The position numbers and the translations under genes are program-made. Source: Candidatus Bathyarchaeota archaeon (GTDB lineage: Archaea; Thermoproteota; Bathyarchaeia; Bathyarchaeales; Bathycorpusculaceae). From it: 64,000 nucleotides of DNA. The stretch is from contig CAWGZR010000005.1 of assembly GCA_963827165.1 (NCBI GenBank), positions 384,001 to 448,000 on the forward strand, in the 5' to 3' direction. The notes below the pieces were generated by a model. The model was given only the letters and a program-made list of their open reading frames with translations, ran no database searches and was not told where the DNA came from. Shown in pieces: positions 21,657-43,269 of the stretch. Numbering within the stretch: the stretch's first letter is position 1; each line of letters opens with the position of its first letter.

Positions 21657-21899
21657 ACGTCAGAACAAAAAATAAATGTTGGACCACCGAAAATTACTCG
21701 CTTCGAGAAAGCAAGAATAGTTGGAGCTAGAGCTCTTCAAATCTCAATGGGAGCACCGATTTTGGTGGATGCAAGTGAAAATACTAACCCGATAGATATA
21801 GCGTTAAAAGAACTTGATGCGTCAATACTGCCGATAACTATTAGGCGGACATTGCCCGACGGAACCTTCCAAGACATACCGCTAAAATGGCTAACTTAG
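21657..21899 (+). CDS. rpoK: RNA polymerase subunit K (Rpo6), apparent ACG start
   Basis: Not in ORF track. Hand translation: (T/M)[36 protein letters not shown]...PIDIALKEL...[12 protein letters not shown]. Confidence 0.93.
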
Positions 21900-30690: not shown

Positions 30691-30920
30691 ATAACATCTT
30701 GAACTTGAGGGGAAAACTTGAAAGGTAAAATCAATGGTAAAAAGCAAGCGAAGGCTAAAAACGCCGATCTTATGGATTGGCTTTTGGCAATTGACGCGTG
30801 CGTTCCATAAAACAAGTGAAAAAAGCAGATGCCAAAGGAACAAAAGAAATTCTTTGACATTTTCCTGCCGGCTCGGCATATGATAAGGGTTATATCTGCA
30901 ACTGTTTCAATACTAAGGCG

Positions 30921-31598
30921 GTGTTGAGCGTGGAAAGAAAAAGTTACGATTGGTTTGAACAGCGCCGCAAAACCAGAGGGTTGGAACTTGCACATGACCA
31001 GATTACTAAAGCCTTCGACACAGTAACATGGCTACATAAGGCAACCATGAGCTTTGCCGAGAAGAATTTTAAAGAGGCTCAGAGATACATTGACAATCTC
31101 TACAAGACTGAAGAAGGCGTTGACGCGCTTCGCACGGATGTTTTCATGGAACTATCCAAAGGAGCCGCCCTTGTCGCTGACTACCGCGAAGATCTACTTC
31201 ACTTGGTTAAACGGCTGGACACATTAGCTGACCACACCAAAGATGCTGCGCGATGCCTCGAGATGTTGTCGGGTGCAGATATTCCACAGGAGCTGAGCGA
31301 CAAGACAGTGGTCATGACTGGGAAACTTGTGGAGACCGCTCAGACTTTGAGAAATAGCATTGAGAAGATTTCGTCGAATCCTACTGAAGCGATAAATGAG
31401 GCAAAGAAAGTCGGGGAAATCGAACATGCCATCGACATTGAATACCTCAAATGCAAAAGCCTGTTTGTGAAGTACGGCGTAAACATGAACGTCGGAGCCA
31501 TGGTAATATTCGATGACTTAATCGAATTCATCGAGCAAGCCGCAGACATGTGCGCAGACACAGCAGACTATATCCTGGTACTCTCAAGCAGAGAATAG
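30921..31598 (+). CDS. DUF47 / PhoU-like phosphate transport regulator
   Basis: Helical repeats EEGVD..R, REDLLHLVKRLDTLAD, EHAID, EQAADMCADTAD. Confidence 0.88.
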   Translation: MLSVERKSYDWFEQRRKTRGLELAHDQITKAFDTVTWLHKATMSFAEKNFKEAQRYIDNLYKTEEGVDALRTDVFMELSKGAALVADYREDLLHLVKRLDTLADHTKDAARCLEMLSGADIPQELSDKTVVMTGKLVETAQTLRNSIEKISSNPTEAINEAKKVGEIEHAIDIEYLKCKSLFVKYGVNMNVGAMVIFDDLIEFIEQAADMCADTADYILVLSSRE

Positions 31599-42360: not shown

Positions 42361-42744
42361 TTGGGGTTCATCTTGCAAGAGAAAAAACAAAACAACACAC
42401 CGATCAAACGCATGGCCGACCTTCTAACACAAGGCGCCACCCTAACCGACTTATCATGCCCAGTCTGCTCATCCCCGCTTTTCAGGCTGCAAGATGGCAC
42501 ACTTTGGTGTGCAAAGGACGAAAAAAAGGTCGTCATTGTAAAAGAAGGCGGAGAAGCACCAACCGCACCCGCCTCTGCATCGGGGTACGACAAACTTGAA
42601 TCCACTTTGCGCGGTAAAATTGGGGACTTGCAGGAAAAAATTGAAAAAACCCAAGACACGGAAGAACTGCAAAAGTTAAGCGCTGCACTATCCCAGCTTC
42701 TTGACAGCCTCGATAAGATACAGAAAATGAAAAAAGCACAGTAG
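42361..42744 (+). CDS. UPF0148 / Sjogren autoantigen-1 family Zn-finger protein
   Basis: MADLLTQGATL..LSCPVCSSPLF...WC plus coiled coil. Confidence 0.9.
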   Translation: MGFILQEKKQNNTPIKRMADLLTQGATLTDLSCPVCSSPLFRLQDGTLWCAKDEKKVVIVKEGGEAPTAPASASGYDKLESTLRGKIGDLQEKIEKTQDTEELQKLSAALSQLLDSLDKIQKMKKAQ

Positions 42745-42753
42745 GAATATCCA

Positions 42754-43269
42754 ACGCTGGGCGTATTTGAAAATTTTCCCCCAAACATCCATTTTGTACA
42801 GTGCTTCACTTCCGTAGCGCCCCGCCAGCAGCTCCAACGAACGTTAATCCAAGTTCTTTACGAAGTAAACAAGAGAGAATTCAGTTTTGAAGAAGCTGGG
42901 CACCCAACAATTCCGAGTTGCAGGATCTTTTTTGAGTTCGGGTTGGCCGACGCTGACAGCTTCAACTTTGTTGACAAGGAAGAAGTCAAAAAAACGTTGG
43001 ACCTGCTTGCGAATCAGGCTTTGGAGTACATGGATTTCTTCTGCGTCGTCCGCTATTACAAGGGCGAAGGGATAAAAAAGAGGGCGTTAAAATTTGATTA
43101 TTACTTTCTCAGAACGGTTTATGGTAGGGGTGTTTTTGAGATTCAAGTTTACCATAAGAAAGGGCTAAGGTATGTGCCGCCGGAAGATTTGACTATGTTT
43201 ATCTTCAAAAAAATAAATGAGGCGTCGAACCGAAAAGTGCTCAAGAAGCAAGCGAGCGACCAAACGTAG
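42754..43269 (+). CDS. Hypothetical protein, apparent ACG (or CTG) start
   Basis: Frame of ORF 42943..43269 is open back to 42745; reads (T/M)LGVFENFPPNIHF...FEFGLADA...LKFDYY. Confidence 0.75.
   Translation, partial: TLGVFENFPPNIHFVQCFTSVAPRQQLQRTLIQVLYEVNKREFSFEEAGHPTIPSCRIFFEFGLADADSFNFVDKEEVKKTLDLLANQALEYMDFFCVVRYYKGEGIKKRALKFDYYFLRTVYGRGVFEIQVYHKKGLRYVPPEDLTMFIFKKINEASNRKVLKKQASDQT

Follow-up and report, generated by a model that had tools for sequence, protein, structure and literature searches.

How is a gene translated when none of the canonical start codons ATG, GTG and TTG occurs in the first 63 codons of its coding sequence? The question is raised by a 64,000-nucleotide stretch of the genome of a Candidatus Bathyarchaeota archaeon (assembly GCA_963827165.1, contig CAWGZR010000005.1, positions 384,001 to 448,000; hereafter the window), in which the frame for a 171-residue protein opens close behind a zinc-ribbon gene and presents an ACG codon where a start would be expected. 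The host genome (G000) comprises 3.13 Mb in 14 contigs and is 94.5 % complete. The junction of the two genes reads GCA CAG TAG GAA TAT CCA ACG CTG GGC GTA TTT GAA AAT TTT CCC; the stop-to-stop frame (42745..43269, 174 codons) is in phase with the upstream TAG, and 9 nt separate this stop from the ACG. A first-pass annotation, made from the sequence alone, had described an ACG-start gene in frame behind the TAG, with AGGA 7 nt before the ACG and no ATG, GTG or TTG for 63 codons. This layout was found in the sequence as described, with the coordinates one base too high (the TAG is 42742–44 and the ACG 42754–56). The explanation that we consider likely, and hold with fairly good confidence, is that positions 42754–43269 encode a real, selected protein of 171 residues that has lost a TTG start and is translated from ACG, in a lineage where this codon serves regularly for initiation. 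From the sequence comparisons, translation now most likely begins at ACG 42754–42756.

The start-less frame is protein-coding

A search of 5.8 billion proteins returned 647 homologs of the stop-to-stop frame. Most were 167–172 residues long and covered 97–98 % of the 174-residue query, so the 63 codons that lack a canonical start are coding, in keeping with the protein-like sequence noted in the first-pass annotation. None of the homologs started near 42943, the position of the first canonical in-frame codon. A further 148 relatives were found among 1.84 billion cluster representatives. Few homologs bear names, and those that do are labelled 'Candidatus Bathyarchaeia'; as far as these named hits show, the protein appears to be restricted to Bathyarchaeia. 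The gene was present in 118 of 120 genomes of the window's genus. Within the genus it always lies directly behind the p27-like zinc-ribbon gene, forming a conserved two-gene unit, and in same-genus loci it is preceded by a zinc-ribbon gene tail of the form ..EKI.KMKKA followed by the stop.

Conservation extends across the start-less part. Among 81 diverse sequences, conservation reaches 90 % or more at residues G3, F8 and P9. All invariant family residues are retained in the window, and the 174-codon frame is intact. In the first 63 codons, dN/dS was 0.19 for pairs of the window with a sister species (n=6) and 0.16 for sister–sister pairs (n=15), with dS of approximately 0.9. Structure prediction by AlphaFold2 with the 81 diverse sequences gave a pLDDT of 95.9 and a pTM of 0.90, with a pLDDT of 97 for residues 1–10; an earlier prediction from 20 close homologs (pLDDT 42.5) was set aside. 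The first strand (residues 14–20) and the first helix (24–39) of the predicted model are located inside the start-less part. Because conserved, structured elements lie upstream of TTG 42943, a product starting from that codon would, on this model, have a broken fold, deprived of strand 14–20, helix 24–39, part of the sheet and 63 conserved residues. The gene caller starts the 95 %-identical cluster P0001 at residue 21, which is 20 residues short.

No Pfam or NCBIfam family matched the 171-residue protein, and a Foldseek search of the PDB with the predicted model found nothing at E<=0.001. The best VIA-align match of the model was the adaptin appendage domain of AP-4 beta (Z 8.1, rmsd 2.9, 103 residues), a Z score at background level; KA1, METTL16-VCR and START-like folds reached Z scores of 7–8, the background stated for the tool, and no function was assigned.

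The letters of the junction were also recovered elsewhere. A soil metagenome run (X2), from a study other than that of the possible source run, gave a 151-nt contig over 42711–42861 with 0 differences at a depth of approximately 3. As this independent run carries identical letters, the CCA ACG sequence is not an assembly error, and a sequencing or assembly error was ruled out as its origin. This includes C42755, the middle base of the ACG, which the first-pass annotation had singled out for verification in reads. RNA contigs from two peat metatranscriptomes span 42372–42581 only, ending before the ACG; these contigs differ from the window at 42423 (T>G).

Relatives start the gene at or next to the ACG

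In the eight nearest species (L031–L037 and L044; 65–77 % identity) the junction reads CAG or AAG, then TAG GAA TAT (or TAC) TTG ACG CTG GGC. Within this block the window differs from the eight by CCA in place of TTG, with the flanks otherwise conserved. Seven of the eight sister species share the AGGA-containing block TAGGAATAT unchanged, and the eighth has TAGGAATAC. A metagenome pattern scan yielded seven loci, two of them chance matches; the other five belong to true relatives and carry TTG without exception. No second copy with CCA was found among these seven, in data from which records close to the window's genome may be missing.

Across the genus, 50 of 59 loci could be read by motif and nine were dropped as the motif was unmatched. 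The codon upstream of the ACG column was a canonical start in 18 of the 50 readable loci with ACG in the column itself, and in a further 23 with another codon in the column (ACT in nine, ACA in eight, ACC in three, GCG in two and AGT in one). In six loci the upstream codon was not a start and the column held ATG or TTG. The other three loci, the window (CCA) and L039 and L040 (both TTT), had no canonical start at the column or at the codon preceding it, and all three held ACG. L039 (genome G099) and L040 (genome G071), from two other species, read TTT ACG CTG GG.

In more distant relatives, residue 1 (M, or L or V as given by gene callers) was located at the ACG column in 42 of 80 diverse family representatives, mostly with LG or FG next, and the family consensus past the start was xLGxYxNFP. 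The first-pass annotation had asked whether homologs begin M-L-G-x-x-E-N-F-P. The position of residue 1 and the consensus largely agree with this for distant members; the nearest relatives depart from it, starting one codon earlier at TTG. Some caller-extended distant members show Thr at the start column (..QQQT, ..TIST or ..LST before LG, YG or FG), which may indicate ACG starts in other lineages.

These comparisons are consistent with a displacement of the start by one codon. In the ancestor, translation would have begun at TTG, with ACG next as the codon for Thr2. In the window species the TTG has given way to CCA, and the start would have moved onto the pre-existing Thr2 ACG, where it would yield Met-Leu-Gly-Val-Phe-Glu-Asn-Phe-Pro, the N-terminus of most distant family members. 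The lineage, a Bathyarchaeia genus with approximately 120 sequenced species, would have tolerated this loss because ACG itself works there as an initiation codon.

Shine-Dalgarno motifs are enriched before start-less ACG codons

Initiation at ACG was examined through the association of codons with Shine-Dalgarno (SD) motifs, the anti-SD being confirmed by the 3′ end of the genome's own 16S rRNA, GGATCACCTCCT. Coding-like open reading frames (ORFs) were called in the genome (n=2916), and the test set consisted of in-frame codons that lie 15 codons or more 5′ of the first canonical start and are separated from it by coding-like sequence. An SD 5-mer preceded 19.6 % of the ACG codons in this set (11 of 56; P=3.4e-6), compared with 3.5 % of all codons in the same test (154 of 4396), 4.0 % of internal ACG codons (315 of 7956) and 18.7 % of confident canonical starts (253 of 1354). 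The other threonine codons carried the 5-mer in 2 of 110 (ACA), 2 of 76 (ACC) and 2 of 62 (ACT) cases; the counts were 6 of 102 for ATA, 5 of 124 for ATT, 7 of 104 for ATC and 0 of 49 for CTG. Enrichment was significant for no codon besides ACG. When codons at most 12 codons from an upstream stop were considered, an SD 4-mer stood before 24 of 46 ACG codons, 9 of 47 ACA, 12 of 48 ACC and 7 of 45 ACT. Confident first starts (n=1353) were ATG in 737 cases, TTG in 422 and GTG in 194.

A list of 32 SD-plus-ACG candidates was compiled. Pfam profiles open 3–8 residues past the candidate ACG for Pyr_redox_2, MobB, ThiS and GCS2, and further candidates include Nramp, PhoU, HsdM (two paralogs), an ABC ATPase, a tubulin-like gene and a synthetase of the TrpRS/TyrRS class. 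For the genome as a whole, we estimate roughly 30–60 ACG-start genes, or 1–2 % of the total.

Two pairs of paralogs were observed among the genes with SD plus ACG: ABC-like genes whose product contains DFD[IV]VK... (G000 contigs C5, 330455–331138, minus strand, and C10, 405127–405552, minus strand) and HsdM N-terminus paralogs (C12, 68400–69992, plus strand, and C13, 61269–61517, plus strand). Since both members of each pair carry the SD and the ACG, the ACG start appears to have been inherited through gene duplication. Three start-less coding ORFs outside the window showed an SD followed by ATA at the onset of coding, e.g. GGGAGAAAC ATA AAG ATA AAA; they are located on C10 (48619–49137, minus strand), C12 (112805–113902, minus strand) and C5 (136313–136774, plus strand). 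ATA is possibly another start codon in rare use, with weak enrichment (5-mer as above; SD 4-mer in 21 of 102).

ACG interchanges with canonical starts in other genes

The companion case that the first-pass annotation had reported within the window, rpoK (RNA polymerase subunit K/Rpo6), proved genuine. The gene has a Pfam match, its ACG follows the thermosome stop (TAA 21651–53) at a distance of 3 nt in the sequence TAA AAA ACG TCA GAA, and no canonical in-frame start occurs before the conserved ALQISMGAP motif, inside which the first one falls. At the start column of 30 genus loci, ACG was found in 19 and ATG in 11, and ACA, ACC and ACT in none. The phase of the thermosome stop upstream of rpoK varies: it matches the rpoK frame in some species but not in several others that have the ACG. 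A TrpRS-like gene showed the same interchange, with ATG at the start of four of 30 loci and ACG, 5–7 nt behind GGTGA, at that of the other 26; 19 of the ACG loci align directly, and indels shift the remaining seven by one codon or two. In one locus of this gene (L241), a TAA immediately precedes the ACG.

The relative G088 was compared over 1.6 Mb, and a partner was found for 10 of the 32 SD-plus-ACG candidates. The codon opposite the candidate ACG was ACG in five, ATG or GTG in four and never another Thr codon; the tenth was a misaligned paralog. As a control, 2036 internal ACG codons were compared with G088 in the same way: 41 % were opposite ACG, 42 % opposite other Thr codons and 2.3 % opposite ATG, GTG or TTG. 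The Nramp gene has ACG opposite GTG in the relative. For a PolB-like gene, genus matches were mostly paralogs; among the five informative close orthologs, four have ATG opposite the ACG and one TTG. ThiS repeats the pattern of the gene studied here, with GGTGA ATG GGA ACG GTT in G088 and GGTGA GTC GAA ACG GTT in this genome. The SD enrichment, together with the rpoK, TrpRS-like and G088 comparisons, agrees with the first-pass view that ACG use is systematic and not a chance error.

Initiator tRNA and a possible mechanism

A single initiator tRNA was identified (A1, GGG/CCC anticodon stem, anticodon CAT). Neither an initiator tRNA with a CGU anticodon nor an initiator paralog was found among the 41 tRNAs reported by aragorn, an incomplete set, or by blastn with the initiator sequence; two short blastn matches that were examined lie outside tRNA-like sequence. 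The tRNA-Thr(CGT) resembles tRNA-Thr(TGT) and looks like an ordinary elongator. Aragorn also reported a tRNA-SeC (anticodon TCA) on contig C4 of G000 (157457–157540, minus strand).

The simplest reading is that the methionyl initiator tRNA (Met-tRNAi) would decode ACG directly on 30S subunits positioned by the SD. The one initiator, with its CAU anticodon, would insert Met by pairing with ACG despite a middle-position C-A mismatch. In the gene studied here, the weak AGGA, and perhaps also the stop 9 nt upstream, would help to place the ribosome. ACG appears to serve in this way behind an SD at normal spacing in roughly 1 % of genes, with essential ones such as rpoK and the TrpRS-like synthetase among them.

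Competing explanations

The alternatives that retain a start at this position differ in how the codon is read. If C-to-U editing of the mRNA converted ACG to AUG, as in plant organelles, then the interchange of ACG and ATG would represent gain and loss of edited sites. The specificity for ACG fits editing, given that CTG, ATA, ATT and ATC lack significant SD enrichment, as does the fact that rpoK and the TrpRS-like gene exchange ACG with ATG while neither GTG nor TTG was seen at those two. The GTG and TTG opposite the ACG of the Nramp and PolB-like genes, however, count against it. To our knowledge, no mRNA C-to-U editing has been reported in archaea, and we consider editing unlikely. The DYW deaminase profile PF14432 had no match in this genome, a weak indicator, as 14 control genomes were equally silent. 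Initiation at the next codon, CTG 42757, giving Met-Gly-Val-Phe, is a poorer candidate still. This CTG is near-cognate, listed among table-11 starts, in frame, 10 nt from the AGGA and conserved as Leu2, and in a noisy ortholog scan five start-less genes had CTG opposite the first canonical start of the partner. Several of those CTG cases nevertheless have an ATG a few codons downstream, CTG shows no SD association in start-less coding extensions, and with family N-termini of the form M-[LFIY]-G a CTG start would remove a conserved position.

Other alternatives place the emphasis on the upstream stop or on the fate of the gene. Termination at the zinc-ribbon TAG could be followed by re-initiation 9 nt further on with relaxed codon choice, so that the ACG would reflect coupling and not a general start. 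The short distance and the adjacency of the two genes throughout the genus favour this, as does the rpoK ACG just behind the thermosome stop, and the first-pass annotation had tied ACG use to upstream stops through systematic re-initiation. That tie found no support across the genome: an upstream co-directional stop within 30 nt was present in 7 of 32 ACG candidates and in 374 of 1704 canonical starts (odds ratio 1.0), and the majority of ACG candidates, probably including Pyr_redox, GCS2 and Nramp, have no upstream co-directional gene within 100 nt. Coupling may assist at the gene studied here but does not explain the specificity for ACG, and as the whole explanation it is improbable. Readthrough of the TAG, for example with pyrrolysine, would fuse the zinc-ribbon protein to the 171-residue protein, and the two frames do share a phase in the window, as they do in all eight sister species. 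Yet other species of the genus have an upstream TGA, often in another frame, and keep a TTG, GTG or ATG start; TAG ends 144 of 640 long ORFs in the genome; and no fused homologs were found among proteins of 95–305 residues, longer forms not being searched. Because the stop upstream of rpoK is out of frame in several species that keep the ACG, readthrough is excluded there and re-initiation is unnecessary. As the upstream stop varies across the genus in codon and in phase, rpoK included, and TAG is a normal terminator, readthrough was rejected, in line with the first-pass annotation, and we regard it as highly implausible. It is also very doubtful that the gene is dead or dying in the window species, or that only a truncated product is made from TTG 42943. 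The canonical start is lost and callers truncate the gene, which points to decay, but the intact frame, the retained invariant residues, the dN/dS close to that between sister species and the identical sequence in a second sample speak against it, and the product from residue 64 would lack core fold elements of the model.

Several observations weigh against initiation at ACG as the preferred explanation. It is deduced from DNA, the RNA contigs end at 42581 and C-to-U editing is possible; CTG 42757 is also near-cognate and suitably placed. The SD at the gene studied here is only the 4-mer AGGA, and the gene failed the coding-score filter for candidates (extension 0.05 per codon), which places it outside the 32. 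The rule that loci with no canonical start hold ACG derives from three loci, two of them possibly sisters (P~0.1, not significant by itself). The species compared are relatives, and the cross-species counts are not independent events. A scan of G088 orthologs by a first-canonical-start rule was noisy, with ACG in four, CTG in five and other codons in 20 of 29 cases; the noise arose from conserved upstream non-coding DNA and spurious upstream TTG or GTG codons, and the scan was replaced by the candidate comparison with the internal-ACG control. Finally, the genome is 94.5 % complete and aragorn gave only 41 tRNAs, so that a further initiator may have gone undetected.

Features of the locus

Coordinates of the features discussed are given in Table 1. 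The start of the zinc-ribbon gene is ambiguous, with ATG 42409 and, in the ORF list, TTG 42361 as candidates; the Pfam match opens one residue past the ATG. The NCBIfam PRK00420 models score below their own cut-offs on this protein.

Table 1. Positions of features in the window
Feature	Coordinates	Strand	Remarks
Zinc-ribbon gene, Auto_anti-p27 / PRK00420 type	42409..42744	+	Stop TAG 42742-42744; PF06677 E 3.6e-11
AGGA, weak SD-like 4-mer	42743..42746	+	Ends 7 nt before ACG; overlaps upstream stop codon
CCA in place of ancestral TTG start	42751..42753	+	All 3 bases differ from TTG
ACG, proposed initiation codon	42754..42756	+	Thr2 in sister species; ATG or TTG start position in distant relatives
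Coding sequence, 171-residue conserved Bathyarchaeia protein, alpha+beta, no Pfam family	42754..43269	+	Stop TAG 43267-43269
TTG, first canonical in-frame start	42943..42945	+	Internal, residue 64; 63 codons past ACG; not the real start
rpoK (RNA polymerase subunit K/Rpo6)	21657..21899	+	ACG 21657-59 at start; PF01192 match

Elsewhere in the window, a gene at 30858–31598 (plus strand; G000 C5 414858–415598) is 95 % identical to its G088 ortholog, whose TTG start corresponds to TTT here. Its first canonical start lies 21 codons into the open frame, which possibly represents another displaced or non-canonical start.

Implications and comparison with known systems

Taken together, these results make it probable, though by no means certain, that the genus has ACG as a fourth regular initiation codon, selected in essential genes and possibly serving as a deliberately weak start for low expression, or alternatively that it provides the first case of archaeal mRNA C-to-U editing from ACG to AUG. 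In either case, gene callers would truncate or miss approximately 1 % of genes. Annotation pipelines follow the AUG/GUG/UUG rule, and if initiation at ACG is true, then each genome contains dozens of wrongly annotated genes, in this case including rpoK, the TrpRS-like synthetase, Nramp, MobB, ThiS and the gene studied. The archaeal initiation complex, the closest model for the eukaryotic one, would then tolerate a mismatch at the middle position, and the locus would show start-codon turnover in progress, with TTG changed to CCA and the adjacent ACG taking over.

Near-cognate initiation at ACG occurs in eukaryotes and viruses, with VP2 of adeno-associated virus (AAV) and C' of Sendai virus as classic cases. 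As there, the ACG described here takes the place of an expected AUG at initiation and is conserved where present; the Met initiator tRNA presumably reads it through a middle mismatch. It differs in belonging to an archaeon and to SD-led genes, with neither scanning nor Kozak context, and in appearing to provide ordinary and essential genes with their only start, not a minor isoform with its own. In plant organelles, C-to-U RNA editing turns ACG into AUG starts; the likeness is that related species have either ACG or ATG in the genome at the start position, which is known here from DNA alone. Bacteria have conserved non-canonical starts, such as the AUU of infC, which resembles the present case in that a housekeeping gene with an ordinary ribosome-binding site has conserved a sub-optimal start. 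The codon and the domain of life are different, however, and here dozens of unrelated genes would be concerned, with no autoregulatory logic known.

A full-text literature search turned up no paper that describes initiation at ACG in an archaeon. In passages of a 2026 Haloferax virus preprint, ACG is mentioned only as a Thr codon, and a preprint on Asgard tubulin proposes a rare ATT start. The accepted archaeal starts, as given in a review, are AUG, GUG and UUG (Asano 2014, PMC4705826). Initiation at ACG would share with this set the same machinery (aIF1, aIF1A, aIF2 and Met-tRNAi) and the same SD spacing. ACG lies outside the set as given there and outside the listed starts of NCBI table 11; GUG and UUG are mismatched at the first codon position, whereas ACG is mismatched at the second.

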